Positions 5,122 through 28,799 of a stretch of DNA of 64,000 bases are shown one piece after another. Within the stretch, counting starts at the first letter, position 1; each line of letters opens with the position of its first letter. The DNA comes from Alphaproteobacteria bacterium (GTDB taxonomy: Bacteria; Pseudomonadota; Alphaproteobacteria; UBA828), in assembly GCA_965237415.1 (NCBI GenBank), contig CBDEFM010000001.1:260205-324204 (forward strand), written 5' to 3'. Below the pieces are notes generated by a model, which was not told the DNA's origin, did no database searches, and saw only the letters and a list, made by a program, of their open reading frames with translations. Position numbers and translations under genes: made by a program.

Positions 5122-7569
5122 ATGACCCAAGGGTTTCCCGACCAGGCGCGTGTCGTGATCATCGGCGGCGGGGCGATTGGCTGTGCCACCGCGTACCATC
5201 TGGCGAAACACGGCTGCGATGATGTCGTCCTGGTCGAGAAAGCCAAGCTCACTTCTGGATCGACCTGGCATGCCGCCGGCGCCTTCGCGCAGTTCCGCAC
5301 AGATCCGAACGCGGGGCGGCTTATGGCCTATGGCGCCGACCTCTACGCCTCGCTCGAGGCCGAAACCGGCCAGGCCACGGGTTGGCGGCAGACCGGCGGC
5401 ATGCGGGTCGCCTCGAACCGCGACCGCCGCCACGAGTACGAGCGGGCGATCACGACGGCGCGCTCCTTCGGCGTCGAGATGCAACTGATATCGGCGAAGG
5501 AAGCGCAGGCGCTCTTCCCCTTCATGACCATCGATCATGTGGATTGCGCGCTCTATATCCCCTCCGACGGCGCCCTGAGCCCGTCGGATACATGCATGGC
5601 ACTGGCGAAAGGGGCGCGCCAATACGGTGCCCGGCTCTTCGAAGACACCGCGGTGACCGGTTTCGAGATGGAGCGCGGCCGTGTCAACGCAGTCAGGACG
5701 GAGCGCGGCACGATCCGCTGCGAGATCGCGGTGATCTGCTGCGGCATCTGGTCGCGCGAAGTCGGGCGGCTCGCGGGGGTGAACGTCCCAATCCAGCCCT
5801 CGCATCATTGCTATTTCATCACCGAGCCGATCGAGGGCGTGACCCGCGACCTGCCGACGACGCGGGACCCCGACCTCTGGCACTACATCCGCGAGGAGGT
5901 CGGCGGACTGCTCGTCGGCCAGTACGACCCCGATCCGATCCCGTTCACCGATCCGATACCCAGGGACCACGAGTTCAAGCTCATGCCCGAGAACCTCGAC
6001 CACTTCATGCCGAGGCTCGAAGGGTTGCTCGACTGGATTCCCGTGCTCAAGACGGTGGGCATCAAGAGCTGGTTCAATGGCCTGGAATCCTTCACCGAAG
6101 ACCAGAATCCGGTGATGGGCGAGGCGCCGGAGGTGCGCAACATCTTCGTGAGCGCGGGCTTCAATGCCTACGGTCTCACCGGCTGCGGCGGCGCCGGTAT
6201 GGCGCTCGGCGAGTGGATCCTGAACGGCGAGCCGCCCTACGACATCTGGAGCTTCGATATCCGCCGCTTTAGCGGCTACCACAGGGCCGACAGCCAGGTT
6301 CTGGTTCGTTCGCTGGAAGGCCAGGGTCACCATTACACCATCGTCTGGCCCCGCGAGGAGATGAAGGCCGGCCGGCCGCTACGGCGTAGCGCGATCTACG
6401 ATCGCCTGGCAGACAGCCGCGCCTGCTTCGGCGCCAAGTTCGGGTGGGAGCGGCCCAACTGGTTTGCGCCCGAAGGGGTCGAGCCGGTGGAGATCGACAG
6501 CTTCGTGCGCCCCCACTGGCACGCGCACGTCGCCGTCGAGCACGCGTCCTGCCGGGGTGCGGCCGCCCTCTTCGACCAGTCGTCCTTCGCCAAGTTCGCC
6601 CTGGTTGGGCGCGATGCGGAGTCCTGCCTGCAGCGCATCTGCGCCGCGGATGTGAGCAAGCCGCCGGGGCGCATCACCTACACGCAGATGCTCAAGGGGC
6701 ACGGCGGGATCGAATGCGACCTGACCGTCGCGCGCATCGCGGACGACTCCTTCTACATCGTTACCGGCACCGGCTTTGCGACCCACGACTTCGACCATAT
6801 CAGCTGCAACATCGATCCGGACGCCCACGCCTCGCTGATCGACGTCACCTCGGCCTACGGGGTGCTCGCGCTGATGGGGCCGCGCGCCCGCGAAATCCTC
6901 GCTGCCGTTGCCGAAGGCCCTCTCGGGCCGGAGGACTTTCCCTTCGGCGCGGTGCGGGAGATCTACGTGGCCGGCGCGCCCGTCCGCGCCATGCGCATCA
7001 CCTTCGTGGGCGAGCTCGGCTGGGAGCTCCACGTTCCGACCGACTACATGGTCACGGTCTACGATGCGCTGAAGGAAGCGGGTGACGCGCACGGGCTGCG
7101 CGATGCGGGCTACCGGGCGATCGACAGCCTGCGGTTGGAGAAGGGCTACCGCGTGTGGGCGGCGGATATCGGTCCTGACTTCAACCCGCTGGAGGCCGGC
7201 CTCGACTTCGCAGTTGCGTTCGACAAGGCGACGCCGTTCATCGGCCAGGACGCTGTGCGGAGGCAGCGGGAACAGCCGCTGACCCGCCGCCTCGTGACCT
7301 TCACCATCGCGGACGACCCCGAGGTGCAGCTGTGGGGCCGTGAGACAATCATTCGGAACGGCGAGCGCGTGGGCTGGCTCGCTTCCGGCGGTTTCGGCCA
7401 CACCGTCGGCCAGAGCATTGGCATGGGCTATGTGCGAAACCCGGCGGGCGTCGGCGACGACTATCTCGCGAGTGGCACGTATTCGCTGGAGGTCGCAACG
7501 CGCGAGGTGCCGGCCGAACTCCACCTACGGCCGCTCTACGATCCGGACAACGAGCGGGTCAAGGCGTGA
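5122..7569 (+). CDS. Dimethylglycine/sarcosine-dehydrogenase-like enzyme (DAO-type FAD domain fused to GcvT folate-binding aminomethyltransferase domain)
   Basis: 815 aa. N-terminal RVVIIGGGAIGCATAYHLAKHG FAD motif. The C-terminal half has GcvT-like features (FAKFALVGRDAE.., GYRAIDSLRLEKGY). The two-domain architecture is diagnostic of this family. Confidence 0.85.
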   Translation: MTQGFPDQARVVIIGGGAIGCATAYHLAKHGCDDVVLVEKAKLTSGSTWHAAGAFAQFRTDPNAGRLMAYGADLYASLEAETGQATGWRQTGGMRVASNRDRRHEYERAITTARSFGVEMQLISAKEAQALFPFMTIDHVDCALYIPSDGALSPSDTCMALAKGARQYGARLFEDTAVTGFEMERGRVNAVRTERGTIRCEIAVICCGIWSREVGRLAGVNVPIQPSHHCYFITEPIEGVTRDLPTTRDPDLWHYIREEVGGLLVGQYDPDPIPFTDPIPRDHEFKLMPENLDHFMPRLEGLLDWIPVLKTVGIKSWFNGLESFTEDQNPVMGEAPEVRNIFVSAGFNAYGLTGCGGAGMALGEWILNGEPPYDIWSFDIRRFSGYHRADSQVLVRSLEGQGHHYTIVWPREEMKAGRPLRRSAIYDRLADSRACFGAKFGWERPNWFAPEGVEPVEIDSFVRPHWHAHVAVEHASCRGAAALFDQSSFAKFALVGRDAESCLQRICAADVSKPPGRITYTQMLKGHGGIECDLTVARIADDSFYIVTGTGFATHDFDHISCNIDPDAHASLIDVTSAYGVLALMGPRAREILAAVAEGPLGPEDFPFGAVREIYVAGAPVRAMRITFVGELGWELHVPTDYMVTVYDALKEAGDAHGLRDAGYRAIDSLRLEKGYRVWAADIGPDFNPLEAGLDFAVAFDKATPFIGQDAVRRQREQPLTRRLVTFTIADDPEVQLWGRETIIRNGERVGWLASGGFGHTVGQSIGMGYVRNPAGVGDDYLASGTYSLEVATREVPAELHLRPLYDPDNERVKA

Positions 7570-15562: not shown

Positions 15563-16690
15563 ATGAACATGTCCAGAATCGCGTTCACCGAGGCCCGTAT
15601 CAGGGCGCTCAAAACGCGCAAGGCAGCTTACGACCTACGCGACAGCAAGCTCACCGGATTCGGCGTCCGGGTCCTGCCCTCGGGCCGCAAACGCTTCTTC
15701 ATCCACTGTCAGCATAGGGGGGAGCGCCTCTGGAAGATCGTCGGCGACCCCGCGACGATGGATGTCCGCGAGGCACGGTCTCAAGCCACGGCGATGCTCG
15801 CCGCGATCCGGCGGGGCGAGGATGTGCCGGGCGAAACGGGCGGGGATTACTTCGAGGCGGTCGCCGAGACCGTGTTCCGGCGTCACGAACGGGTCTGGAA
15901 GTCGAGGACCCTTTACGTGAACCGGTGTTATCTGCGCAATCAGCTCCTGCCGCATTTCGCCGGACGCCGGGTCGCGGACATCGGCATGGACGATGTCCGG
16001 AACTGGTTTGCTTCGCTGCGTGCAACCCCGGTCGCGGCGGATCGCTCCATGCCGGTGCTTTCCGTCATCATGCGGGAGGCGGAAGCGATGGGCCTTCGGC
16101 CCGAGGGGTCCAACCCGTGCCGAGGCATCAGGCGATACCGCCGGAAGGGGCGGGAGCGCTTCCTGTCCGACGAAGAGATCCGCAGGTTGTCCGCAACGCT
16201 GTCGGCCCATGCGGACCGTCGCCCCGGACAGGTTGCGGTCATTCGCCTTCTCCTGCTGACCGGATGCCGCCAAGGCGAGATCCTGACACTGCGCTGGTCG
16301 GACTATCGCGAAGGCCATCTGTTCCTCCGGGACAGCAAGACGGGCCCCAGAACCGTCTGGCTGTCGGACCCGGCCAGGCGCATTCTCGATACCCTGGAGC
16401 GAACCGGTCCATGGGTCTTTCCGGCCGCGCAGCGGGACCGCCCGCGGAGCGCGGGGTGGCTGCACCGGTTCTGGTACCGGGTCCGCACGGAACCCGGCCT
16501 GTGCGACGTGCGCCTTCACGACCTGCGCCACACTCATGCCAGCATCGCCCTGAAGCAGGGCGCAACCGTCCTCGCGATCGGCAGGCTGCTCGGACACCGC
16601 AGCCCAGAGACGACGCTCAAATATACCCATCTCGCCGACACGATGGTCCACGAGGCCGCCGAGACGGTCGGCGCCGTGCTTGAGGGCTGA
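15563..16690 (+). CDS. Tyrosine integrase, P4-like (DUF4102 arm-binding N-terminus)
   Basis: 375 aa. N-terminal LTGFGVRVLPSGRKRFF. Catalytic motifs LLLLTGCRQGEILTLRW, HDLRHTHAS and LLGHRSPETTLKYTHL. Confidence 0.9.
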   Translation: MNMSRIAFTEARIRALKTRKAAYDLRDSKLTGFGVRVLPSGRKRFFIHCQHRGERLWKIVGDPATMDVREARSQATAMLAAIRRGEDVPGETGGDYFEAVAETVFRRHERVWKSRTLYVNRCYLRNQLLPHFAGRRVADIGMDDVRNWFASLRATPVAADRSMPVLSVIMREAEAMGLRPEGSNPCRGIRRYRRKGRERFLSDEEIRRLSATLSAHADRRPGQVAVIRLLLLTGCRQGEILTLRWSDYREGHLFLRDSKTGPRTVWLSDPARRILDTLERTGPWVFPAAQRDRPRSAGWLHRFWYRVRTEPGLCDVRLHDLRHTHASIALKQGATVLAIGRLLGHRSPETTLKYTHLADTMVHEAAETVGAVLEG

Positions 16691-16693
16691 GCG

Positions 16694-17842
16694 GTGGCGC
16701 ACAAGAAACGCGTGCGACTCACCGATACGGCCATCGCCCGCCTGCGCCCCCGCGAGCGGGAATATACGGTCTGGGACGGGAGCCTGCCCGGTCTCGGGGT
16801 CCGGGTCCGTCCGTCCGGAGGACGCAGCTGGATATTCCTGCTCAAGACGGATGGAGGGACCCGCAAGATCTCCCTCGGGCCGGCGGCGCTGAAGATAGCC
16901 GAGGAGGCCCGCCGCGAGTGCCACGTCCTGTCCGCGGCGCCCGGCCACGAGCGCGAGCCCGAGGAGACCGGGCACGTGGCACCTTTGTTCCGGGCTTTCG
17001 TCGCCGGCGCGTGGAAGACGGCTCACTTCAACCGGTACAAGCCTTCGACGCGGAGGGGCGTGCGATATGTCCTTGCCAGGCAGCTCTTGCCCGCGTTCGG
17101 ATCGAGGCCATTGGATCGAATATCCCGGGCACAGGTCAGATGCTGGTTCGACACATTCAGCCAGACCGCCCCGGCGGGTGCCAACCGTGCTCTCGACATC
17201 TTGCGGCAGATCATGAACTTCGCAATCGCCTGCGGCCACATCGACGCCAATCCCGCGCGCGGCGCAAAAAGGAACCGACGTCAGCCGCTCACCCGCTTCC
17301 TGTCCCGCGAGGAGATCGGCCGCCTCCATAGCGTCCTGGACAAGCAGTCCGGCAAGAGCCGCACGCGGCAGGCCGACATCATCCGGCTTCTGCTGCTCAC
17401 CGGATGCCGCAAAAGCGAGATCGTGCAGCTGCGCCGGTCCGAGGTCCGGGACGACGTGCTCACCTTGGCCGACAGCAAGACCGGGCCGCGAAACGTGCCC
17501 CTCAACGCAGGAGCCCGGCGCATCCTCGAACGGCAGCCCCAATGCGGGAGCCCGTTCGTGTTTCCGTCGCCCCGCGACCCGGCCCGGCCGCGCAGTCTCA
17601 ACCTCCCGCTATGGTATCGGGTCCGGCGGGAAGCCGGGATCGAGGATGTCCGTCTTCATGATCTCCGCCATACGGTGGCGAGCCATGCCGTCATGAACGG
17701 GGTGCCGGTGCCGGTGGTATCCCGGCTGCTCGGCCACTCCAATGTGCGCATGACGCTACGCTATGCCCATCTCGGGGACCGGGAAATCGAGGCTGCGGCC
17801 GAAAGCATCGGCCAATTCATCGCCGATATCATGGACATGTAG
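16694..17842 (+). CDS. Second tyrosine integrase, P4-like, 3 nt downstream of the first
   Basis: 382 aa with a GTG start. LPGLGVRVRPSGGRSW, LLLLTGCRKSEIVQLRR, HDLRHTVASHAV, LLGHSNVRMTLRYAHL. Confidence 0.9.
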   Translation: MAHKKRVRLTDTAIARLRPREREYTVWDGSLPGLGVRVRPSGGRSWIFLLKTDGGTRKISLGPAALKIAEEARRECHVLSAAPGHEREPEETGHVAPLFRAFVAGAWKTAHFNRYKPSTRRGVRYVLARQLLPAFGSRPLDRISRAQVRCWFDTFSQTAPAGANRALDILRQIMNFAIACGHIDANPARGAKRNRRQPLTRFLSREEIGRLHSVLDKQSGKSRTRQADIIRLLLLTGCRKSEIVQLRRSEVRDDVLTLADSKTGPRNVPLNAGARRILERQPQCGSPFVFPSPRDPARPRSLNLPLWYRVRREAGIEDVRLHDLRHTVASHAVMNGVPVPVVSRLLGHSNVRMTLRYAHLGDREIEAAAESIGQFIADIMDM

Positions 17843-18026
17843 AATGACCGTTGGCCGGCGTATTCGCCTCGTACCGCTGGTCCGTGGGGTGTGAAAACCA
17901 ACGCGGCTCCGCCCTTGTAGCCGGACGACGGCACAGCTTATGGTTAGGACTCTTTGCTGTTTGTTGGTCGGCGCGCGGATTGGACGCCGATCGGCGCGCT
18001 AACTAGTTGTTTTCTTTTGACTCATA

Positions 18027-18064
18027 GGGGTCAACATCGCGCGCTTAACAACACTCAAGCTCGC
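18027..18064 (+). repeat. 38-bp GGGG-type terminal inverted repeat, copy L (GGGGTCAACATCGCGCGCTTAACAACACTCAAGCTCGC)
   Basis: Matches the reverse complement of 22984-23021 at 32/38 positions. Matches 22081-22108 (same orientation) at 22/28. Confidence 0.7.
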
Positions 18065-18238
18065 TGCGCTCCTCCGCAGTCAACTTGATCTCCACCGATG
18101 GCCGCATCACCATGCCCCCCGATTCGATACCACCCCTTTAACAATACGAACTTTTGGGAATTATATCGAATAGTCACATTTTCCGCTTGACCATGCGCCC
18201 ATCAATCTTTATCTTATAGTCACACAAGGGGATTGAAG

Positions 18239-19225
18239 ATGGCTCGCAAGGCACCCGGTAAATCGCATCGCAAGGGACTGACCTTCATGGAGGTCGCCGA
18301 CATGTTCCGCGACGAAGAGACGGCGCGGGAGTGGATCGAGAAAGAGCGCTGGCCCGATGGCCCGTACTGCCCAAAGTGCGGATCGTTCAACGTCCAGTCC
18401 AAGATCAAGCACAAGACCATGACGCACCGTTGCCGGGAGTGCATGAGCGGCAAGAGCAAGACCATGTTCACCGTCCGCATCGGCACCGTCATGGAAAGCA
18501 CGAAGATGCCCTACCGCGCTTGGGCGGTCGGCATTTACCTGTTCACGACGAACATCAAGGGCGTGTCGTCCATGAAGCTGCATCGCGAACTGGGCATCAG
18601 TCAGAAGGCGGCATGGTTCATGCTGCATCGGCTGCGGCTGGCGTTTGACGCCGAGACCGGGCCGTTCACGGGGCCGGTGGAAGTGGACGAAACGCATATC
18701 GGTGGCAAGCGGAAGAACAAGCCGTTGGCGAAACGGAAAGAGCTGAAAGGTCGCGGCGCGGTGGACATGACCACCGTTGCCGGGGCGAAGGACCGCGAGA
18801 CCAACCGGATTGCGGCCCGCGTCGTTGCAGATACCGATGCGCCGACGCTGCAAGGTTTCGTTCGCGAGCACGCCAAACCCGGCGCGACGGTCTATACGGA
18901 CGAGGCGAGAGCCTACAAGGGGATGCCCGAATTCACCCATGAGGCCGTCAATCACAGCGTCGGCGAATATGTCCGCGATATGGCTTCGACGAATGGCATG
19001 GAGAGCTTCTGGTCCATGCTGGAGCGCGGGCATCAGGGCATCTACCACAAGTTCTCGCCGAAGCATCTTGATCGCTACGTGACGGAATTCGCCGGCCGGC
19101 ATAACGACCGCGAAGCCGATACCGTCGATCAAATGACGGGGATCGTTGCGGGCATGGTCGGGAAACGGCTGACCTATGCCGATCTGACCGCGGACAATGG
19201 GCTGGACTCGGGAGCGCGCTCATGA
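18239..19225 (+). CDS. IS1595-family (ISXO2-like) DDE transposase with N-terminal zinc ribbon
   Basis: RWPDGPYCPKCGSFNVQSK..HRCRECMSGK zinc ribbon, MPYRAWAVGIYLFTTNIKGVSSMKLHRELGISQKAAWFMLHRLR HTH, and EVDETHIGGKRKN. The track start 18233 is TTG; ATG 18239 is preferred. Confidence 0.9.
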   Translation: MARKAPGKSHRKGLTFMEVADMFRDEETAREWIEKERWPDGPYCPKCGSFNVQSKIKHKTMTHRCRECMSGKSKTMFTVRIGTVMESTKMPYRAWAVGIYLFTTNIKGVSSMKLHRELGISQKAAWFMLHRLRLAFDAETGPFTGPVEVDETHIGGKRKNKPLAKRKELKGRGAVDMTTVAGAKDRETNRIAARVVADTDAPTLQGFVREHAKPGATVYTDEARAYKGMPEFTHEAVNHSVGEYVRDMASTNGMESFWSMLERGHQGIYHKFSPKHLDRYVTEFAGRHNDREADTVDQMTGIVAGMVGKRLTYADLTADNGLDSGARS

Positions 19226-19638
19226 CCGATGAAGAACGCCGTCAACAGAACTGGGTGGAACTCCGGGCAGACTGCACGGCGCAAGGAATCTTCGATCTCA
19301 TTGTGAACGCCGTGAAGCGCGACGTTGAGCGATTCAACAAACTCCCTCCGCAGAGGCGCCGAGACCGAACCTTCAAGCTCGAACAGAATGAACGGGAAAT
19401 CGTTGGTGTCGCTCAAGTGAACGATTCCGGGGAGTGGATAAAAGGGCTGATGGGCATAAACATTGAAAAGACCGGAGCGACTATTAGGGTATGGCGCAAC
19501 CGAGATTGTCAATTTGCGGTCGAACAGGAATGGAATGAAGAGACGCTCGCCTGCGACCTGAAGATCGACGGTAAGCGCTATTCGGTCTGGCAGATCAGTC
19601 AGAAGGCGATCGGTGACCTGCTGTTCGGCTATGGCTGA
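19222..19638 (+). CDS. Hypothetical protein (138 aa), first passenger gene of the IS
   Basis: Its start overlaps the transposase stop (ATGA). Its stop overlaps the next start (ATGGCTGA). I recognise no motif. Confidence 0.55.
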   Translation: MTDEERRQQNWVELRADCTAQGIFDLIVNAVKRDVERFNKLPPQRRRDRTFKLEQNEREIVGVAQVNDSGEWIKGLMGINIEKTGATIRVWRNRDCQFAVEQEWNEETLACDLKIDGKRYSVWQISQKAIGDLLFGYG

Positions 19639-21040
19639 TCCCAACTTCGCGAGCGGCACGGTCTGGACGGGCGACAACCTCGCGGTCATGCGGGGCATGA
19701 ACAGTGGGTGCGTCGATCTGATCTACTTGGACCCGCCGTTCAACTCCAATCGGCACTACGAGGCGCCGATAGGGAGCAAGGCCGCCGGGGCCTCGTTCAA
19801 GGACGCATGGACCCTGGACGACGTTGACGTGTGCGAGCATGGCGAACTAGCCGATCGCAACCCAGCGGCATACTGTGTCATCGAAGCGGCACGCATGGCG
19901 CATGGAAAGTCCATGCAATCATACTTGATCTTCATGGCGGTACGGTTGCTGGAAATGAGGCGCATCCTAAAGCCCACGGGCAGCATCTATTTGCACTGCG
20001 ATCCGACTGCGAGCCATTACCTGAAGTTACTAATGGACAGTATTTTTGGACAAGACAGCTTTCGTAATGAAATTGTGTGGCAACGGACGCCCGCGAAGGC
20101 GTTGATGACCACGCGGCTGGCGACCAACCATGATATTTTGTTTGTTTATCAGATGGCAGAGCGTGCAACATGGAATGCAGACGCAGCCTTCATCCCATAT
20201 GATCCGAACAACCTCGACAGTCGGACGGCTTCTAAATATCGGCACTTAGATGCCGACGGGCGGGTGTACCGTCTTGATAACTTGACTAATCCGAACAGAA
20301 ATAGGCCGAACCTAACATACGAATTCATGGGCGTTACTCGTGTATGGCGCTGGACACAAGAACGAATGCTAGAAGCGTATGACGCGGGATTGATCGTTCA
20401 AAACAAGCCGGGAGGTGTGCCTCAGCTAAAGCGGTATTTGGATGAGCAGAAGGGACGGCCAGTCGGAGATGTATGGGCAGATATTCCGCCTATAAATTCG
20501 CAAGCGAAGGAGCGGATAGGCTATCCCACTCAAAAGCCCTTAGCCTTGCTAAGGCGGATCATTACACTGAGTACCTATCCCGATGATTTTGTGCTTGATC
20601 CCTTCTGCGGTTGCGCCACGGCCCTTGTCGCGGCGGATCGGCTCCAACGGAAGTGGGCCGGTATCGACCTCTCGCCGCTCGCCATAAAGCTAGTTAACGA
20701 GAGAATCGCGGGAGATCGGGCAGCCACCAAGGAGGCCGAACACAACCCCGTGATCGGCGGCTCCCTGTTCCGCGTAACAGCCCTGACAGAGCCCCCCAGC
20801 CGAACGGACCTAGGAGACCTTCCCAACTACCGGACACACCGGCACCGCCTCTACGGCGTACAGGAGGGCGTCTGCGCAGGCTGCGAGACGCACTTCCCGT
20901 TCCGCGTCATGGACGTTGACCACATGCTGCCCCGCTCACGCGGTGGGACGGATCATCCCGACAATCTTCAACTGCTCTGCTCCGGTTGCAACCGGAGCAA
21001 GGGCGGTAAAACGATGGCCGAATGGAGGGCCGCGCAGTGA
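19631..21040 (+). CDS. N6-adenine/N4-cytosine DNA methyltransferase (beta-class motif order) fused to a C-terminal HNH endonuclease domain
   Basis: Motif IV DLIYLDPPFNSN lies near the N-terminus, and the AdoMet motif VLDPFCGCATALVAA lies later. The C-terminal CAGCETHF..DVDHMLPRSRGGTDHPDNLQLLCSGCNRSKGG is a canonical HNH with two CxxC pairs. ATG at 19631. Confidence 0.85.
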   Translation: MADPNFASGTVWTGDNLAVMRGMNSGCVDLIYLDPPFNSNRHYEAPIGSKAAGASFKDAWTLDDVDVCEHGELADRNPAAYCVIEAARMAHGKSMQSYLIFMAVRLLEMRRILKPTGSIYLHCDPTASHYLKLLMDSIFGQDSFRNEIVWQRTPAKALMTTRLATNHDILFVYQMAERATWNADAAFIPYDPNNLDSRTASKYRHLDADGRVYRLDNLTNPNRNRPNLTYEFMGVTRVWRWTQERMLEAYDAGLIVQNKPGGVPQLKRYLDEQKGRPVGDVWADIPPINSQAKERIGYPTQKPLALLRRIITLSTYPDDFVLDPFCGCATALVAADRLQRKWAGIDLSPLAIKLVNERIAGDRAATKEAEHNPVIGGSLFRVTALTEPPSRTDLGDLPNYRTHRHRLYGVQEGVCAGCETHFPFRVMDVDHMLPRSRGGTDHPDNLQLLCSGCNRSKGGKTMAEWRAAQ

Positions 21041-21216
21041 CCGACAAACCCCGCAAGCGCAAGCTGCCGAAGCCCAGGACGATCACGCTGCCCGATCAGA
21101 GCTACCAGCCGCCGAAGGCGGAGCAGGAGAAAGAGCACGACATGCCGGGTGCGTCCAAGAAGACGGTGCGCCGTGCATTCTTCCGTCCGGTCAACGTCCG
21201 CCGCGAGGACGGATGA
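21022..21216 (+). CDS. Hypothetical small basic protein (64 aa)
   Basis: Overlaps the methyltransferase 3' end by 19 nt, and its stop overlaps the next start (ATGA). Lys/Arg/Pro-rich. Coding status rests mainly on this coupling. Confidence 0.4.
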   Translation: MEGRAVTDKPRKRKLPKPRTITLPDQSYQPPKAEQEKEHDMPGASKKTVRRAFFRPVNVRREDG

Positions 21217-21554
21217 AGGGGAAGAAATATAGAAGGCAGATGAAGCGCCTGCGGAAGATGCTGGCCGATGGAACGCGCTACCAGGGCGGGGCGTACAAAG
21301 ACGGCAAGAGGCATGGCCCTTGGGTGGCAATCCGTCGTAATGGGACTGTTGTGGTGTGCGAGTACAAGGAGGGCGCGATGGTTGGCCGTCCTCGCAAACT
21401 CAAGAAGGGTCATTGGCCGCCGGTCATAGCTACGGTGCGGGCCCAAGGCTCTGTTTCAGCACGGAGCTGGGGCCACGCGAGGATGCACGGCCCACCTCTT
21501 CGGGGTGGGAGGGCTGACGGCAATCAGGTGTCGCGACTACGATTCACAATGTGA
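21213..21554 (+). CDS. Hypothetical protein with one MORN/YwqK-like repeat (113 aa)
   Basis: GAYKDGKRHGPWVAIRRNGTVVVCEYKEG resembles a MORN-type repeat. The stop codon lies inside IRR. Confidence 0.4.
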   Translation: MKGKKYRRQMKRLRKMLADGTRYQGGAYKDGKRHGPWVAIRRNGTVVVCEYKEGAMVGRPRKLKKGHWPPVIATVRAQGSVSARSWGHARMHGPPLRGGRADGNQVSRLRFTM

Positions 21555-21606
21555 CTATTCGATATAATCCCCGAACTTTTCGTACAGAACACTAGCACCG
21601 GAGGAC

Positions 21607-21975
21607 ATGGACATGTTGAAGACACTAATGTGGGCGACAGTAAGCGTGATCGCCATAGTGGCAACCACAGAAAACCTGACGGGCGCTGACGGCACTAAGG
21701 CTGACACCTGGGCCAAGCAGATAGCAGAGAAGGACCCGCGGAACGCAAATTGGAGGGCGCTGAAAGCTCGCAAGATGAGCGTGGGTCTGATAGAGCAGCA
21801 GTGCCGCAAATACATCAACGGACCACGCAAGGCAGAGGCATTAGACGAGGTAGCCTCACAGCTGTACCACTGGCGAGAGACTGCATACGACATCGCGGAT
21901 GCCATGAACTACGACCACATACCGACTGCAAGGACCCTGTGCATGGACTTGAAGACCTTGAGCATCATACGCTGA
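21607..21975 (+). CDS. Hypothetical protein with N-terminal hydrophobic segment (122 aa)
   Basis: Strong SD GGAGGA 3 nt upstream of the ATG. N-terminal LMWATVSVIAIVATT looks like a signal or anchor. No homology recognised. Confidence 0.5.
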   Translation: MDMLKTLMWATVSVIAIVATTENLTGADGTKADTWAKQIAEKDPRNANWRALKARKMSVGLIEQQCRKYINGPRKAEALDEVASQLYHWRETAYDIADAMNYDHIPTARTLCMDLKTLSIIR

Positions 21976-22080
21976 CCAAATAGCGCTCCGCCCTACCCAT
22001 AGGCGTTGAACGCTGGCTGTTGTTCGGCGAGTGGTTGCGCGCCGATCGACGCGATAAGCTATTGAAGTGGCTTGATATTG

Positions 22081-22108
22081 GGGGTCAAAATTGCACGCCG
22101 AACAACAA
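22081..22108 (+). repeat. Third, internal copy (M) of the GGGG-type repeat (GGGGTCAAAATTGCACGCCGAACAACAA)
   Basis: 22/28 identical to copy L in the same orientation. Forms an inverted pair with copy R around the HExxH gene. Confidence 0.5.
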
Positions 22109-22145
22109 TAGAAGAAGGGGCAATGCGGTGGGAGGGCATCGCCGG

Positions 22146-22898
22146 ATGACAGAAATGAAACTGACGATCGATCTGCAAAGTTTTTCACCGAAGAACGAAG
22201 TGCGGAAGCGAGGAATCGCGACCACGCTGGAATCGACGTTCGAAGCCTTCATGTCGGTGTTCGAAAGGCAACCGGATGCGGGTGTGAACGTGGCATGGTG
22301 GGGATCGCCGAAGCCGCCGAGGACGTTGTTCGACCGTCGGCCGTACGAGATACGGCTGACAGCCCGGGGAAACGGCTGGCCGCAGTACGCCTATCAGTTT
22401 GCCCACGAGCTGTGCCACGTGATGACCAACTTTGATCGTGTCAAGGAACACCGGCACAAATGGTTCGAGGAAAGCCTGTGCGAGCTTGCCTCGCTCTTCG
22501 TGCTCTACAGGCTTGCCAAAGCATGGGCGGCCGATCCGCCTGCCGGAATAAGCGCAGCCGGGAGTTATGCCCCCGCCCATGCGGAGTACGCGCGGAGCGA
22601 GATGGGAAAGTCCGCTCCCGTACCGCGATCGGGACTTCCGGCGTGGATGAAAGCCAACATCGGCACGATGGAGGAGAACAGCACGAAACGTTGTCTCAAT
22701 CGGGTTGTTGCGGTCGCACTCCTGGATTGTTTCCGGCAAGACCCCGCGCTCTGGCGGGACTGCGCGTGCCTGAATTTCTGGGATGCCAGCAAGGACCCGA
22801 CATTCGCGGCGTATCTCGACTCGTGGGACGGGATTCTCAGCGGTCGGGGCGCCGTGCCGGGAGCGACGCCAAGCCTTGTGAGGGCACTGGTTCTTTGA
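22146..22898 (+). CDS. Putative zinc metallopeptidase, gluzincin-like HExxH...E motif (250 aa)
   Basis: FAHELCHVMTNFDRVKEHRHKWFEESLCELAS gives HExxH followed 17-18 residues later by a Glu in a WFEES context. This is reminiscent of the M1/MA-clan WLNEG motif. Start set at ATG 22146 (MTEMK). Confidence 0.55.
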   Translation: MTEMKLTIDLQSFSPKNEVRKRGIATTLESTFEAFMSVFERQPDAGVNVAWWGSPKPPRTLFDRRPYEIRLTARGNGWPQYAYQFAHELCHVMTNFDRVKEHRHKWFEESLCELASLFVLYRLAKAWAADPPAGISAAGSYAPAHAEYARSEMGKSAPVPRSGLPAWMKANIGTMEENSTKRCLNRVVAVALLDCFRQDPALWRDCACLNFWDASKDPTFAAYLDSWDGILSGRGAVPGATPSLVRALVL

Positions 22899-22983: not shown

Positions 22984-23021
22984 TCGATCTGGAGTGTTGT
23001 TAAGCACGCTTTGTTGACCCC
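22984..23021 (-). repeat. 38-bp GGGG-type terminal inverted repeat, copy R
   Basis: The reverse complement GGGGTCAACAAAGCGTGCTTAACAACACTCCAGATCGA matches copy L at 32/38. Confidence 0.7.
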
Positions 23022-23080
23022 CCGGAATCCAGCCAGATCAATGGATTACCGCGTCGATCGGCGCCGAACCCGCGCGCCGA

Positions 23081-23172
23081 TCAACAACCGGTTGCCGACG
23101 CAATGAAATTCTGACGCTGCGCTGGGAATTTATCGATTGTGGATTTCCTGCAAGGCGAGAATTTGCATAACT
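23081..23172 (+). pseudogene. Tyrosine-integrase fragment (catalytic Arg box only)
   Basis: Translates to TTGCRRNEILTLRWEFID. Compare LLLLTGCRQGEILTLRW in the intact integrases. It is flanked by unrelated sequence and an early stop. Confidence 0.45.
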
Positions 23173-23434
23173 GATTGTAACCAATCTATTTATTCTATTT
23201 CTCGCCGCCGCCTGGAAGACGGTTTCCTGCACTGTTCAACACTATTTCAACACGGGACCTCCGGTCATGAGCGAGCGCATCCCGGGCGCCGCACGCCGCA
23301 AAGGTAACCGTTCGGCGGCCCTTTCAATTACCCACATCTTGGTATTTTTAGTGTCTTGCCACAATTTGTTGTGTTTGTGGAGTAGAGCGTGATTCCTTGT
23401 CCGGCACCGAATCGGGAACGGAGAGGTGCGGATC

Positions 23435-24019
23435 ATGGAGCAACGTTGGTTCGACGAGGAACTATCGGGTTGCCAGCTTGGCGACGGTCGTCTGGATAGT
23501 CGCCTTCGCCAACTGGTGGAGCGCATGGATGCCGGGTTCGGCGAGAGCATTCCTCTTGCCTGCCAGGACTGGGCCAGCACGAAGGCGGCGTACCGCTTCT
23601 TCTCCAACGACCGGGTGAGCGAAGAAGATATTCTTCGGGGCCATTTCGACGCAACGCGGCGCCGGTTCGTCGCCAGCGACGGCCCGATGCTGGTTCTTCA
23701 CGACACGACGGAGTTTACATGGAAACGTAGGCGTTCCGAGGCAGTGGGCTTCACCACGAAGGTAAGCAGCGGCAAGGACAAGCGCGGTCGCGAGCGCATG
23801 CACACGGTCTGCGGGCTATTGATGCATTCGAGCCTGGTGGCGACGACGGATGGGTTGCCGCTGGGAATAGCCGCGGCCAAGTTCTGGACCCGGAAGAAGT
23901 TCAAGGGCACGAACGCCCTCAGGAGGAGGATCAACCCAACGCGCGTGCCGATCGAGGGCAAGGAGAGCATGCGCTGGCTGGACAACCTGCGTCGGCGGCC
24001 GGGGGATTTCAGCGATTGA
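23435..24019 (+). pseudogene. IS4-family (Tn5/IS50-like) transposase, N-terminal about 185 aa only
   Basis: LGDGRLDSRLRQLVERM, STKAAYRFFSNDRVSEEDIL and VLHDTTEF follow the Tn5 Tnp N-terminal DNA-binding region and first catalytic Asp. Homology stops near 23985, less than half of a full transposase. Confidence 0.7.
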
Positions 24020-24312: not shown

Positions 24313-24599
24313 CGATAACGGGCGGGATCGGATTCAGGCTGACGGCGCGGTGGGAGGCGTACTGATCCTCACGATCGCGTTCGACGCGAGCGGCATCGGA
24401 AGGCAAGAAAGGGGATAACGTGTTCCGGGGCACACAACAGACTGGTGCGTGGCGTGGACGAGTGCACCCCCATCATCAAGCCGGCTCACAACGGTGGCGC
24501 GCGGGTCGGCGTGCACCCCGCGCGCCGGACCACGACCACTTGCAAGACCGGCCCCCTACGGCTGGCATCGCCGCCCGGAATAGGCCCGTGCGCTCCACC

Positions 24600-27500
24600 A
24601 TGGCTCGCGGGACCGCAGCCGCGCTGCTCACGCTGGCCGTGCTGTTGGGCGTGGCCCTGCCGGGTTCCCCCGCCTACGCGAGCGACGTGCTGTGGGAGGC
24701 CTCGTTGACGGTGGGCAACTACCTGACTGCGGACGAGCCGCATTCGGAGAGGGAACGAGGTTTTCGCAGGGAGTATTGCGTTCCGGAATCCTGGGGGTCG
24801 TACCTCGGTGAGGATTGGTCAAATCTTCTTGAAGAGGATCGATCCAATTATGATATGTGCTATGGCAGCATTTCCGACCGTACGTTCGAAGTGGATGGAA
24901 GGACCTACACGCTGGAAGGTGTATTTCACTGGGTTTCCGACGAAGTGTTCCTACTCGAATTCACGAGATCGGTCGATATGACCCCGCTGTTGGGCAAGGA
25001 GTTCATCGTCAACGGGGTCACGTTCCGGATGGCAGACGGGAGCTTCCCGGCTGGCAATAGAGGCGACGGCATCGTCTGGCATGCACCCCAATGGAACGCC
25101 GCCATGGGCTGGGAGGTGGGTTCCACCATCTCGGTGCAAATCAAGGAGTCGGGGCCGCTGACGGCAAAATTCCGGAACCTGCCGAACAGCCACAACCGGG
25201 AGCCGGCCCTTTTGGGGCTGTATCCGTTTGCCTTTCTGCTTGAGTTCAGCGAGGAGGTCGCGGTCGACGCGGACACCTTGCGCTCGGTGCTGACAGTGAC
25301 AGGCGGCGAGATGACCGGCATCGCGCGGCGATATCCGCCGAGGAACCAGATCTGGCGGATCACCGTGCAGCCGGCCTCGCTGGTCGCACCGGTGATGCTC
25401 ACGCTGACGGCGAAGGCGAGCTGCGAGGACGATGGGGCCATCTGCACCGCGGACGGCCGCCGCATGGCCGAGGCGGTCGAGGCCGAGGTGCCGGGCGCCC
25501 CGCCGCCCCGGGTGACGAATGTGGCGATACCGGGATCGTCGGGTCCCGGAGAGAACGGCACCTGGGACACGGGCGAGATCGTCCTTGCGCAGGTGAGCTT
25601 CAGCGTGCCGGTGACATTGGTGAAGCCTGGGGGCAGGGAACCGACCCTCGGCATCCTGCTCGACGGTATGCGCCGCGAGGCGGCGTACTGGACCAGAACC
25701 GAACGGACCCTCCTGTTCCGCTACACGGTGACCGCGGAGGACGACGGGGCGCGCAACGCGTGGGTGGTGTCGAACGGGCTGTCGCTCAACGGTACGACCC
25801 TCCGTGACGAGATCGACCGGGACGCGAATCTCGGCTTCTCTATCGCGCCGCCCCTCCCCGGGCTTTCGGTAGCGGATGTCACGGTGACGGAGGCCGCAGG
25901 CGCGACGGCGGATTTCGTGGTGACCCTGAGCCCGGCGGCGTCGGAGACGGTGACGGTGGACTACGCCACCTCGGACGGCACCGCGACCGCGGGGGCGGAC
26001 TACACGGACACCTCGGGGACGCTCACCTTCAACGCCGGCGAGACCTCGAAGACGGTCTCGGTGCCGGTGGTCGATGACGCCCACGAGGACAGCGGAGAGA
26101 CCTTCACGCTGACGCTCAGCAACGCGTCGGGCGGCGAGGCGTATCTTGCCGACGCAAGCGCGACCGGGGCTATCGAGAACGACGACCCCGCGGTGGAAGC
26201 GACGCCGCTGACGGCGGAGGTCCGGGACATTTCCGTGGAGGCCCACGATGGGAGCACGGCGTTCACCTTCGAGCTTCGCTTCAGCGAGGACGTAACGGGC
26301 CTGAGCTACGCGACGCTACGCAATTCCGCGTTCTCGGTAACGAACGGGCAGGTGACGCGGTCGCGACGCCTCGTGCAAGGGAAGAACAGACGCTGGGAAA
26401 TCACCGTCGCGCCCGACGGCAACGACGACGTCACCATCACGCTGCCGGCGACGACGGACTGCGCGGCCACGGGCGCCATCTGCAACGAAGACGGCCGTCC
26501 ACTCTCGGCGGCGGTCACGGCGACGGTCCCGCATACGGCGCAGGCGCAGACGGACACGCCCCCGCCGCCGGACTTCCGGGTCCGGTTCGAGGACATTCCG
26601 GCCGTGCATGACGGGACGAGCGCGATCGTCTTCAAGGTCAAGTTCAACACGAAGCCCAAGGCCAGCTACAGCTACGTCACGATGCGCGACGGCACGCTGG
26701 TCGTCCGGCAGGGCGGAGCGGCCATTGCGGTCACGCGGGCCAAACGCCTCAACAAGCCGCACAACGACCAGTGGGAGATCACGGTCAATCCGGTGTCGAA
26801 GGCGAACATGACGGTCGCGATCCGGCAGACCGCCTCGTGTAGCGAGACGGGCGCGATCTGCACGGAGACGGACGAGCCGCTCGCGAATGGCGGGCTCTCG
26901 CAGACGATCCTCGGCCCGCCGGGGCTCCGGGTGATGGATGCGGAGGTGCGGGAGGCCGCGGACGCGACGGTGGATTTCTCGGTCATCCTGAGCCCCGTGT
27001 CGTCGGCGACGGTGACGGTGAACTACGCCACCGCGGACGACACGGCCACCGCGGGCTCGGACTACACGGCCACGTCGGGGACGCTGACCTTCGAGCCGGG
27101 CGTCACCTTAAAGAGGGTGTCGGTGCCGGTGCTCGACGACGTCCTTGACGATGACGGGGAGACGTTCACGCTGACCTTGAGCAATCCCTCGGGGGCGAAT
27201 GCGTATCTGGTGGACGCCACGGCCACGGGCACCATCCGGAACTCCGACCCGCTACAGCAAGCGTGGCTGGCGCGGTTCGGCCGCACGGTGGCCGACCAGG
27301 TGATCGAGGCGGTGCAGGGCCGTATTCAGGCGCCGCCGCGTCCCGGGGTCGCGGTGAGTCTCGCCGGCCAGGCGATCGGCGGCGACGGATCGTTGTCCGG
27401 GGCCGGTTCCGCGGAGCCGGACGGCGCGGACGCGCGGGCGTCGCTGGCCGAGGAGACCGAGGCCCGGTCGCGGCTGGAGACGATGTCGAACTGGTTGCAG

Positions 27501-28799
27501 GGCGAGAATGAGGAGGATGGCAGTCGGGCCGGGTTCCGGTCACGCAGCGTGACGGAACGCGACCTGCTGACCGGGACGTCGTTCTCGCTGACGGGCGAGG
27601 CCGCGGCGGACGGCGGCTACGCGTCGCTGTGGGGCCGGGGCGCGGTCTCAAGCTTCGACGGCCGCGACGGCGACCTCACGCTCGACGGCGAGGTGACGAG
27701 CGCCATGCTCGGGGCGGACTGGACGCGCGACCCCGGATCGGGGTCCGGGGCAGGTGCGTGGACCGCCGGGCTTCTGGTGTCGCATTCGCGCGGCGACGGC
27801 AGCTACCGGGGCGAGGGCGAGGGCAAGGTCGAGAGCGCGCTGACCGGGCTCTATCCCTATGGGCGCTATGCGGTGAGCGACCGCGTGACGGTCTGGGGCG
27901 TGGCCGGCTACGGGTCGGGCACGCTCACGCTGACGCCGAAGAACCCGGTGGAGGGCGAGGACGACAGGCCGATCGAGACCGATATGAGCCTGACGATGGG
28001 CGCGGTGGGCGTGCGCGGGGTGATGATCGAGGCGCCGGCCGAAGGCGGCCCGGAACTCGCGGTCAAGTCGGACGCGATGATGGTGCGCACGAGCTCGGAG
28101 GCGGCAAGCGGCAGCGGCGGCAATCTCGCGGCGGCGGAGGCCGACGTGACCCGTCTGCGGCTCGGTCTGGAGGGGAGCTGGCGCGGCATCGAGGCCGGCG
28201 GCGGCGAACTGACGCCGCGTCTCGAGATCGGGCTTCGCCATGACGGCGGCGATGCCGAGACCGGCTTCGGCCTCGACCTCGGTGGCGGGCTTGCCTGGTC
28301 GCATCCGGCGAGCGGGGTCTCGGCCGAGCTCAGCGGGCGCGGCTTGCTGACCCACGAGGCCGGCGGCTTCCGCGACCGTGGTATCTCGGGCTCGCTCGGC
28401 TGGGATCCGCGGCCGGAGACCGGGCGCGGGGTGAGCCTCACGCTGACCCAGACGCTGGGTGCGTCGGCCTCGGGCGGCATGGACGCGCTCTTGTCGCGCG
28501 GCACCCTGGCGGATCTGGCGGCCAACGACGACGGGGCGGACGATCTGCAGCGCCGCCGTCTGGAGCTCCGGCTCGGCTACGGCGTCTCCGCCTTCGGGGA
28601 CCGGTTCACGGCGACGCCGGAGATCGGGCTCGGCCTGTCGGACAGCGCGCGCGACTACAGCCTCGGCTGGCGGCTCGGTCTCGACCGGTCCGGACCGAAC
28701 GCGCTCGAACTCCGGCTCGAGGCGACGCGGCGCGAGAGCGCAAACGACAACGCGGACCCGGAGCACGGCATCGGGTTCAAGCTGACGGCGAGCTGGTGA
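24600..28799 (+). CDS. Autotransporter with Calx-beta and Big-like passenger modules (about 1,399 aa)
   Basis: Signal peptide MARGTAAALLTLAVLLGVALPGSPAYA at ATG 24600. Two Calx-beta domains (..VDYATSDGTATAGADYTDTSGTLTFNAGETSKTVSVPVVDD..) and three 90-100-aa Big-like modules. The C-terminal about 470 aa is a beta-barrel translocator with alternating pattern, ending GFKLTASW. Confidence 0.85.
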   Translation: MARGTAAALLTLAVLLGVALPGSPAYASDVLWEASLTVGNYLTADEPHSERERGFRREYCVPESWGSYLGEDWSNLLEEDRSNYDMCYGSISDRTFEVDGRTYTLEGVFHWVSDEVFLLEFTRSVDMTPLLGKEFIVNGVTFRMADGSFPAGNRGDGIVWHAPQWNAAMGWEVGSTISVQIKESGPLTAKFRNLPNSHNREPALLGLYPFAFLLEFSEEVAVDADTLRSVLTVTGGEMTGIARRYPPRNQIWRITVQPASLVAPVMLTLTAKASCEDDGAICTADGRRMAEAVEAEVPGAPPPRVTNVAIPGSSGPGENGTWDTGEIVLAQVSFSVPVTLVKPGGREPTLGILLDGMRREAAYWTRTERTLLFRYTVTAEDDGARNAWVVSNGLSLNGTTLRDEIDRDANLGFSIAPPLPGLSVADVTVTEAAGATADFVVTLSPAASETVTVDYATSDGTATAGADYTDTSGTLTFNAGETSKTVSVPVVDDAHEDSGETFTLTLSNASGGEAYLADASATGAIENDDPAVEATPLTAEVRDISVEAHDGSTAFTFELRFSEDVTGLSYATLRNSAFSVTNGQVTRSRRLVQGKNRRWEITVAPDGNDDVTITLPATTDCAATGAICNEDGRPLSAAVTATVPHTAQAQTDTPPPPDFRVRFEDIPAVHDGTSAIVFKVKFNTKPKASYSYVTMRDGTLVVRQGGAAIAVTRAKRLNKPHNDQWEITVNPVSKANMTVAIRQTASCSETGAICTETDEPLANGGLSQTILGPPGLRVMDAEVREAADATVDFSVILSPVSSATVTVNYATADDTATAGSDYTATSGTLTFEPGVTLKRVSVPVLDDVLDDDGETFTLTLSNPSGANAYLVDATATGTIRNSDPLQQAWLARFGRTVADQVIEAVQGRIQAPPRPGVAVSLAGQAIGGDGSLSGAGSAEPDGADARASLAEETEARSRLETMSNWLQGENEEDGSRAGFRSRSVTERDLLTGTSFSLTGEAAADGGYASLWGRGAVSSFDGRDGDLTLDGEVTSAMLGADWTRDPGSGSGAGAWTAGLLVSHSRGDGSYRGEGEGKVESALTGLYPYGRYAVSDRVTVWGVAGYGSGTLTLTPKNPVEGEDDRPIETDMSLTMGAVGVRGVMIEAPAEGGPELAVKSDAMMVRTSSEAASGSGGNLAAAEADVTRLRLGLEGSWRGIEAGGGELTPRLEIGLRHDGGDAETGFGLDLGGGLAWSHPASGVSAELSGRGLLTHEAGGFRDRGISGSLGWDPRPETGRGVSLTLTQTLGASASGGMDALLSRGTLADLAANDDGADDLQRRRLELRLGYGVSAFGDRFTATPEIGLGLSDSARDYSLGWRLGLDRSGPNALELRLEATRRESANDNADPEHGIGFKLTASW

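Follow-up and report, generated by a model that had tools for sequence, protein, structure and literature searches.

A methyltransferase–HNH fusion gene carried as cargo by an IS1595-family insertion sequence

What does a gene that joins a DNA methyltransferase (MTase) to an HNH nuclease do inside an insertion sequence (IS), and do the small genes packed around it belong to the same system? The question is raised by a 64,000-nt stretch of an Alphaproteobacteria bacterium genome (GenBank assembly GCA_965237415.1, contig CBDEFM010000001.1, positions 260,205 to 324,204; hereafter the window), for which a first-pass annotation described four overlapping plus-strand genes at 19222-21554 directly after a transposase gene. 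The open reading frames (ORFs) and overlaps are as described there, and all five plus-strand genes fall within a 3,417-bp IS1595-family element at 18156-21572. The explanation that we favor, with somewhat better than even confidence, combines an IS1595 transporter IS (tIS) backbone with a solitary, self-contained cargo gene, the MTase::HNH fusion, that resembles a restriction–modification (RM) system. The backbone would consist of the transposase, a translationally coupled protein of the p138 family and the basic protein p64 at the right end, joined in this sub-lineage by p113. The slot between p138 and p64 is filled by cargo that varies among relatives, here the solitary MTase::HNH gene. The features are as follows.

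18148..18155, unstranded: left 8-bp target-site duplication GAACTTTT; same 8 bases at 21573-21580 (flank check)
18156..18180, plus: left terminal inverted repeat (GGGAATTATATCGAATAGTCACATT); same end in the related loci L010, L014-L021 and L189-L193
18187..18215, plus: sigma-70-like promoter match immediately inward of the left end, 5' of the transposase gene (TTGACC-17-TATCTT, 9/12 consensus positions)
18233..19225, plus: IS1595-family transposase, 330 aa, N-terminal zinc ribbon and DDE domain (PF12760, PF12762, NF033547)
19222..19638, plus: p138, uncharacterized family accompanying IS1595 transposases, backbone gene (homologue clusters, AlphaFold2, dN/dS, context)
19631..21040, plus: cargo gene, 469-aa beta-class amino-MTase with C-terminal HNH nuclease (Pfam domains, 30 homologues)
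20075..20470, plus: hypervariable middle of the fusion, aa 149-280, presumed target-recognition domain (pairwise identity)
20873..21019, plus: HNH nuclease domain, aa 415-463, CxxC...CxxC zinc site and DH...N...N (PF01844, PF14279)
21037..21216, plus: p64, small lysine/arginine/proline-rich right-end backbone gene (GTG start, 59 aa; or ATG at 21022, 64 aa; orthologues)
21213..21554, plus: p113, optional small right-end protein, stop codon inside the right inverted repeat (five homologue clusters)
21548..21572, minus: right terminal inverted repeat (inverted-repeat search and flank check)
21573..21580, unstranded: right 8-bp target-site duplication GAACTTTT (flank check)

Boundaries, family and mobility of the element

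Both edges of the element are sharply defined. The duplicated target GAACTTTT abuts GGGAATTAT... at the left and ...ATAATCCCC at the right, and inverted-repeat arms of 28 nt (93% complementary) lie at 18153-18180 and 21548-21575, the terminal repeats themselves spanning 23-25 nt. Between them, the five genes overlap at their stop and start codons (ATGA at 19222-19225, ATGGCTGA at 19631-19638, GTGA at 21037-21040 and ATGA at 21213-21216). The promoter-like match at 18187-18215 is a consensus match only, of a kind no commoner than shuffled expectation, and a terminator scan of 18156-21572 found no plus-strand terminator-like site inside the element. Judged from the sequence, co-transcription of the five genes from the left end is plausible.

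The transposase carries a DDE_Tnp_IS1595 domain (PF12762, E 1.1e-38, 133 bits against a cutoff of 27) and an N-terminal zinc ribbon (PF12760, E 5.5e-09, aa 27-70), matches NF033547 with 176.7 bits against a cutoff of 75, and shows a ratio of non-synonymous to synonymous substitution rates (dN/dS) of 0.17 against sister copies. The ends GGGAATTAT/GGGGATTAT and the 3.4-kb length would fit the ISNwi1+ entry of ISfinder, a candidate subgroup assignment; this subgroup of IS1595 was reportedly set up by Siguier, Gagnevin and Chandler in 2009, with ends said to read ggnnatTAT and lengths of 1.75-4.75 kb. Membership in the family itself follows from the 8-bp duplication, the zinc finger and the DDE domain, because the family is defined by an 8-bp target-site duplication, a zinc finger (absent only in the IS1016 group) and DDE_Tnp_IS1595 (PMC8101967).

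Transporter ISs are IS-like structures with passenger genes between their inverted repeats, reported only from the IS1595 and IS66 families (10.1101/2021.05.26.445724), and here four genes besides the transposase gene lie between the inverted repeats. We are highly confident that 18156-21572 is an active IS1595-family transporter IS. It shares with other IS1595 members of this class the single DDE transposase with N-terminal zinc ribbon, the short inverted repeats, the 8-bp duplication and the internal passenger genes. The first-pass annotation could match the gene combination to no described system. As an IS with passengers the element is of an already known kind, but its p138/p64/p113 backbone, defined cargo slot and MTase::HNH cargo differ from other such elements and were not found described in the literature searched. 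The cargo is uncharacterized yet widespread, and the small-protein backbone, including the p138 family, is undescribed. An earlier report describes RM or solitary M genes enclosed by inverted repeats, with an 8-bp target duplication (Furuta, Abe & Kobayashi 2010, PMC2853133). In those units RM genes lie between long inverted repeats, for example of 65 bp in Xanthomonas oryzae, and the set excluded RM systems linked to mobility genes; the article cites the founding IS1595 paper of 2009, among four references, for IS-flanked RM systems and solitary M genes (PMC2853133). In contrast, the element described here has its transposase inside the unit, and many independent insertions of it are documented.

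The same or sister elements occupy at least 11-12 other metagenome sites with their own 8-bp duplications (L010, L015-L020 and L189-L192). The element therefore transposes as a whole unit, and the first-pass proposal that the gene set is mobilized by the transposase is borne out. The closest copy (L010) holds the same five genes on another metagenome contig, with the fusion 99%, p64 98% and p113 95% identical; its flanks differ from those in the window and it has its own target duplication, CAAAATTG. A 3,070-bp sister (L014-L021), lacking p113, combines an 89% identical transposase with p129, a 68% identical fusion and p60 (81%), and is found at eight different sites, two of them within one 5.5-Mb contig; at six of the eight (L015-L020) the 8-bp duplications are clean and distinct. 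A third sister, present at at least three sites (L190-L193), has an 88% identical transposase, an extra 72-aa ORF, a 66% identical p138, a 426-aa fusion of only 38% identity and a ~85% identical p60. Duplicated targets cluster around CAAAATTG, which is AT-rich, and CAATTTTG. In backbones whose transposases are 88-89% identical, one and the same slot is thus occupied by fusions that are 99%, 68% or 38% identical.

In the plasmid collection neither a close copy of the IS nor p138 was present, and the fusion was missing as well, the best match there being to an MTase only (54%). Two further observations concern the variants of this lineage. The transposase gene is a mosaic relative to L010 and L016 (18156-19225), blocks of 97% nucleotide identity (18556-18855) alternating with blocks of 74-89%, which indicates frequent recombination among co-resident IS variants. 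Directly left of the L014 element lies the right end of another relative (L014 3826-4546) with a different gene order: a p64-like ORF, then a p138-like ORF, then the inverted repeat.

The methyltransferase–HNH fusion and its possible function

The cargo gene was initially described as a 469-aa fusion of a beta-class MTase with an HNH nuclease, and domain searches agree. The protein matches PF01555 N6_N4_Mtase over aa 28-356 (E 1.4e-40; 140 bits, cutoff 26.7) and PF01844 HNH over aa 415-458 (E 8.2e-11; 42.3 bits, cutoff 21.4), and its HNH domain is similar to those of Cas9, a group II intron maturase and PDB entry 4h9d. The DPPF motif (motif IV, aa 34-37) lies N-terminal to DPFCGCAT (motif I, aa 323-330), which is the beta-class order. 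Both catalytic centers are conserved, with MTase residues D34, P35, P36, D323, P324, F325, G327, C328, A329 and T330 and HNH residues C415, C418, D430, H431, N445, C450, C453 and N454 invariant in 30 homologues, and dN/dS for the gene is 0.09-0.17. The middle of the protein is hypervariable: across aa 149-280 mean pairwise identity is 0.44 (minimum 0.14) versus 0.72-0.78 in the catalytic cores and the HNH domain, and nucleotide identity to the L016 sister is ~40% across 20075-20470. The linker between MTase and HNH also varies in length among homologues. The best sequence matches of solved structure are 9c3u, 8urk, CcrM (6pbd), MboIIA and RsrI, along with Type III Mod subunits, and the fusion matches PHROG 67 at E 2.9e-53. 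A DPPF motif points to adenine methylation, and the methylase is probably an N6-adenine enzyme.

The domain combination is not peculiar to this element. A protein search listed 120 matches out of at least 8,000 scored candidates, and among the matches listed all combine MTase and HNH at 61% identity or more, in Chloroflexota, alphaproteobacterial metagenome-assembled genomes (MAGs) and others. Five of nine sampled fusion lineages lie in or beside IS1595 elements (P0038, P0041, P0077, P0132 and P0047) and the other four are lone genes; in some of the IS1595-linked lineages the transposase gene is convergent and there is no p138. The first-pass annotation saw no separate restriction or specificity gene. 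Indeed, none lies within the element and none recurs in 27 other fusion loci, where neighbor clustering yields the IS1595 transposase as the only recurrent partner and no recurrent helicase or regulator gene either. Among the best 25 of 95 PADLOC families matching the element's proteins, all are generic MTase_II, MTase_III or oMTase models and none is a system-specific anti-phage component. In three termite-gut metagenome contigs (L042, L046 and L055), two MTase::HNH paralogues, ~40% identical to the window protein, stand head to tail.

Relatives without an HNH domain (50-58% identity) are common on phage contigs, and several of these methylases are in turn carried by IS1595 elements that are more distant and bounded by inverted repeats. 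In two such elements (L107 2377-6527, on a viral contig, and L085 79-4139; transposases 33-36% identical) the cargo is a methylase of this family that lacks the HNH domain, and the elements are flanked by clean 8-bp duplications, GGCGCAGG and CTCGCAAA. Methylase cargo therefore recurs in the IS1595 family.

We hypothesize that the fusion, a self-contained gene that moves horizontally, acts as an RM-like enzyme in one polypeptide. A single variable recognition domain would direct the beta-class amino-methyltransferase, which would mark the host's sites, while the tethered HNH nuclease would cut unmarked DNA, and the enzyme would thereby exclude incoming DNA, penalize loss of the element, or both. 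This reading is suggested by conserved catalysis, a hypervariable recognition module, the lack of a partner gene and the replacement of one allele by another within a fixed slot, the last of which fits selection for changing specificity. We rate an RM-like function of the fusion at a little short of an even chance.

Known enzymes offer partial parallels. Type IIC/IIG enzymes (MmeI, BcgI-like) hold methyltransferase, recognition module and nuclease in one chain and have no separate R or S gene. They resemble the fusion in being a single chain whose recognition module evolves fastest, but Type IIG/IIL (MmeI-like) enzymes combine a gamma-class methyltransferase with an N-terminal PD-(D/E)XK nuclease, whereas the fusion combines a beta-class methyltransferase with a C-terminal HNH. 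Because both MTase class and nuclease differ, the fusion would at most work like a Type IIC/IIG enzyme and is not a member of that family. Solitary beta-class N6-adenine MTases (CcrM, M.RsrI, M.MboIIA and phage orphans) share its motif order but have no nuclease domain, and against the NCBIfam CcrM and PRK11524 models the fusion scores ~79-80 bits, far under the cutoffs of 830 and 292.

Several considerations weigh against our explanation. First, we know of no experimentally characterized member of this fusion family, and no description of an MTase-HNH fusion or of IS1595 methylase passengers was found in the literature searched. Second, PADLOC matches the MTase half of the fusion only, and to generic MTase models. 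Third, its closest HNH-less relatives are phage orphan methylases, which makes a purely protective methylase ancestry plausible. Control of the HNH nuclease by methylation status is, moreover, an assumption built into the RM-like reading. Finally, p138 has no recognizable fold, and its role in the backbone is drawn from genomic context.

The strongest rival treats the fusion either as a selfish gene of homing type or as a protective orphan methylase, its HNH domain nicking or cutting DNA to spread the gene by recombination rather than to restrict foreign DNA, and its methylase shielding the host of the element, or mobile DNA arriving in new hosts, against other restriction systems. The phage-borne orphan methylases are in keeping with this idea, as are the solitary, intergenic fusions that several genomes carry amid housekeeping genes, the allele swaps within one IS slot, and the 62-71% identity between fusions of Chloroflexota and alphaproteobacterial MAGs, which indicates frequent horizontal transfer. 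However, homing nucleases normally need no methylase, insertion itself destroying their target, and the strong diversification of the recognition domain looks like the evolution of RM specificity. We consider this rival unlikely.

If the fusion is an active one-chain RM enzyme, the element would be the smallest known package of autonomous transposition and a self-contained restriction system. Genomes contain these elements in multiple copies, and backbones that are nearly identical exchange the presumed specificity domain; an RM-like function would thus give a direct experimental handle on the movement and diversification of RM systems and on the way in which an element present in several copies tolerates a nuclease. 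A bolder proposal, which we put forward tentatively and regard as doubtful, is that this IS1595 lineage is a dedicated mobile platform in which transposase, p138 and the small basic right-end protein, as a conserved backbone, enclose a slot repeatedly exchanging one-polypeptide MTase::HNH restriction-like genes of different specificity, with the fast-diverging alleles of p138, a new fold, as an unrecognized transposition accessory or immunity factor. On that proposal the IS would spread and shuffle minimal restriction systems within and between genomes. Should the fusion instead be no more than an orphan methylase whose nuclease is vestigial, the element is an ordinary passenger-carrying IS.

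Independence of the modules and the small backbone genes

Whether the small genes are partners of the fusion can be judged from relatives in which one occurs without the other. Between p138 and p64, fusion-less elements carry a DUF1232 protein (L001), a 127-aa membrane protein (L007), 94-aa and 111-aa proteins (L184) or a 148-aa secreted-looking protein (L189, whose p138 is 93% identical to that of the window), and L184 has kept p64 (87%) and p113 (76%) beside its right repeat without any fusion. Conversely, other IS1595 elements (L011, L012, L031, L121 and L185) carry the fusion but neither p138 nor p64, and elsewhere it is a lone gene among housekeeping genes (L022 and L186-L188). Between the window and L010, fusions that are 99% identical accompany p138 proteins that are only 27% identical. 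The modules of the element are independent of one another, with no co-variation between their alleles. The backbone is therefore made up of the transposase, p138 and p64, with p113 as an optional addition, and the fusion is cargo.

This evidence bears directly on the idea, raised by the first-pass annotation, that p138, the fusion, p64 and p113 act together, linked to the transposase, as one restriction, addiction or anti-phage system. All of the genes overlap and appear translationally coupled, and a set of p138-like gene, fusion and p64 recurs in three allelic versions (window/L010, L014-L021 and L190-L193). The occurrence of the small genes without the fusion and of the fusion without the small genes, the pairing of near-identical fusions with divergent p138 alleles, and the lack of any match of p138, p64 or p113 to a defense model speak against a single functional cassette, which we regard as improbable. 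A role of p138 as specificity or controller subunit of the fusion was rejected since alleles do not co-vary and each gene occurs alone, and an RM controller (C) protein identity was rejected for p138 and p64 alike because neither matches a helix-turn-helix family and both occur without the fusion.

The p138, p64 and p113 genes are genuine genes under purifying selection. Their dN/dS values span 0.07-0.36, rather than the ratio of about 1 that the first-pass annotation had named as evidence against conservation, and the three proteins are, as it stated, of no recognized kind, with no match in Pfam, NCBIfam, PADLOC or PHROGs. They may have roles in transposition. The largest family is that of p138, with 37 close clusters and, by profile search, ~760 clusters at 50% identity. 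In its alignment 23 columns are invariant, the C-terminal motif SxWQISQKAIGDLLFG among them, and dN/dS is 0.17-0.36. An AlphaFold2 model (mean confidence score, pLDDT, 91) consists of two helices, a seven-strand beta-meander and a C-terminal helix and has no fold match at E<=0.001 in PDB or BFVD. In reference genomes p138 relatives adjoin an IS1595 transposase in eight of nine loci, none of which contains the fusion, and p138 follows IS1595 transposases in fusion-less elements (L001-L008 and L189). A hidden Markov model of the family finds no member in fusion-bearing L011, L012, L031, L121 and L185 or beside solitary fusions. The distribution identifies p138, on present sequences, as an IS backbone gene and not a partner of the fusion. 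The family is a sizeable uncharacterized one, confidently modeled but of no known fold, that is tied to IS1595 transposases, and it may bear on the regulation of IS1595 elements.

The p64 gene stands as the lysine/arginine/proline-rich gene first described, but its start does not: by homology it begins at GTG 21037 and encodes 59 rather than 64 aa, orthologues beginning at the same codon with ATG. Orthologues occur with or without the fusion (L001, L007, L010, L014-L021, L184 and L189-L193), and dN/dS is 0.07-0.25, the comparison with L010 showing 10 synonymous changes and none that is non-synonymous. A small basic ORF also follows the fusion in L031 (3649-3828), L121 (~5326-5499), L185 (5392-5565) and L011 (7401-7598). 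All four share a motif resembling IPDTxENIAxAI..PPKK, those of L031, L121 and L185 have an RGRP or GRP (AT-hook-like) stretch, and similarity to p64 is weak (E ~0.1). No such ORF follows the solitary fusions.

Five homologue clusters of p113, at 58-94% identity, share the invariant pattern QGGAYxDGKxHGxW...C.Y..G..V...RKLK..WP, and dN/dS is 0.34 against L184, the comparison with L010 having only 9 differences and so being uninformative. The protein is absent from L014-L021 and L189-L193, which include two of the three fusion-bearing sisters. The MORN/YwqK-like repeat initially proposed for it could not be substantiated, with no MORN or other Pfam family matched even at E<=10; the resemblance lies only in the YxDGKxHGxW pattern and in predicted beta-hairpins, which accompany a helix in a poor model (pLDDT 56).

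Least probable of all is that the fusion serves transposition, either through methylation of the IS ends or promoter that times it, much as Dam methylation times transposition of IS10 and IS50, or through an HNH strand cut made for the DDE transposase: physical linkage to an IS1595 transposase does recur in several lineages that are unrelated to one another, and also for methylases without an HNH domain (L085, L107, L151 and L175), but intact duplications flank relatives that share the ends and lack the fusion (L001, L007 and L189), so that the fusion is not needed for insertion, and near-identical ends with 88-89% identical transposases go with unrelated recognition domains, which makes a conserved methylation site in the ends unlikely. 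On this last ground, a transposition switch operated by methylating the IS ends was rejected as unlikely, and the first-pass suggestion of a nuclease/methylase aid to transposition likewise finds no favor in fusion-less relatives that insert with normal duplications.

Genomic surroundings

Two tandem tyrosine integrase genes (15563-16690 and 16694-17842) lie ~310 bp 5' of the IS, and in L184 a tandem pair of 61% identity (73-2250) stands beside a decayed copy belonging to this IS lineage, which suggests a shared type of genomic island. No tRNA gene is present in the 64-kb window, and therefore no tRNA-linked island boundary can be assigned. A ~100-nt repeat occurs three times around the IS (17961-18063, 22018-22107 and 22985-23087) and again in L010 (12407-12503) and L184 (6941-7032). 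In the window, the two outermost copies stand in inverted orientation (76% complementary) and enclose the IS together with two ORFs, of 122 aa (21607-21975) and 292 aa (22020-22898), neither of which matches Pfam, NCBIfam, PADLOC or PHROG. The IS is inserted ~26 bp 5' of the ribosome-binding site of the 122-aa ORF, and the 292-aa ORF lies between two inverted repeat copies, in the manner of a small non-autonomous element with cargo.

Further to the right, 23426-24019 encodes a 197-aa N-terminal transposase fragment with a Tnp_DNA_bind domain (PF14706), which we take to be of Tn5/IS4 type, and is probably a truncated IS. The gene at 24420-28799, where a region of higher G+C (~0.70-0.75) starts, encodes a protein of 1,459 aa that has two Calx-beta domains and whose C-terminal half is rich in Gly, Ala, Ser and Asp.

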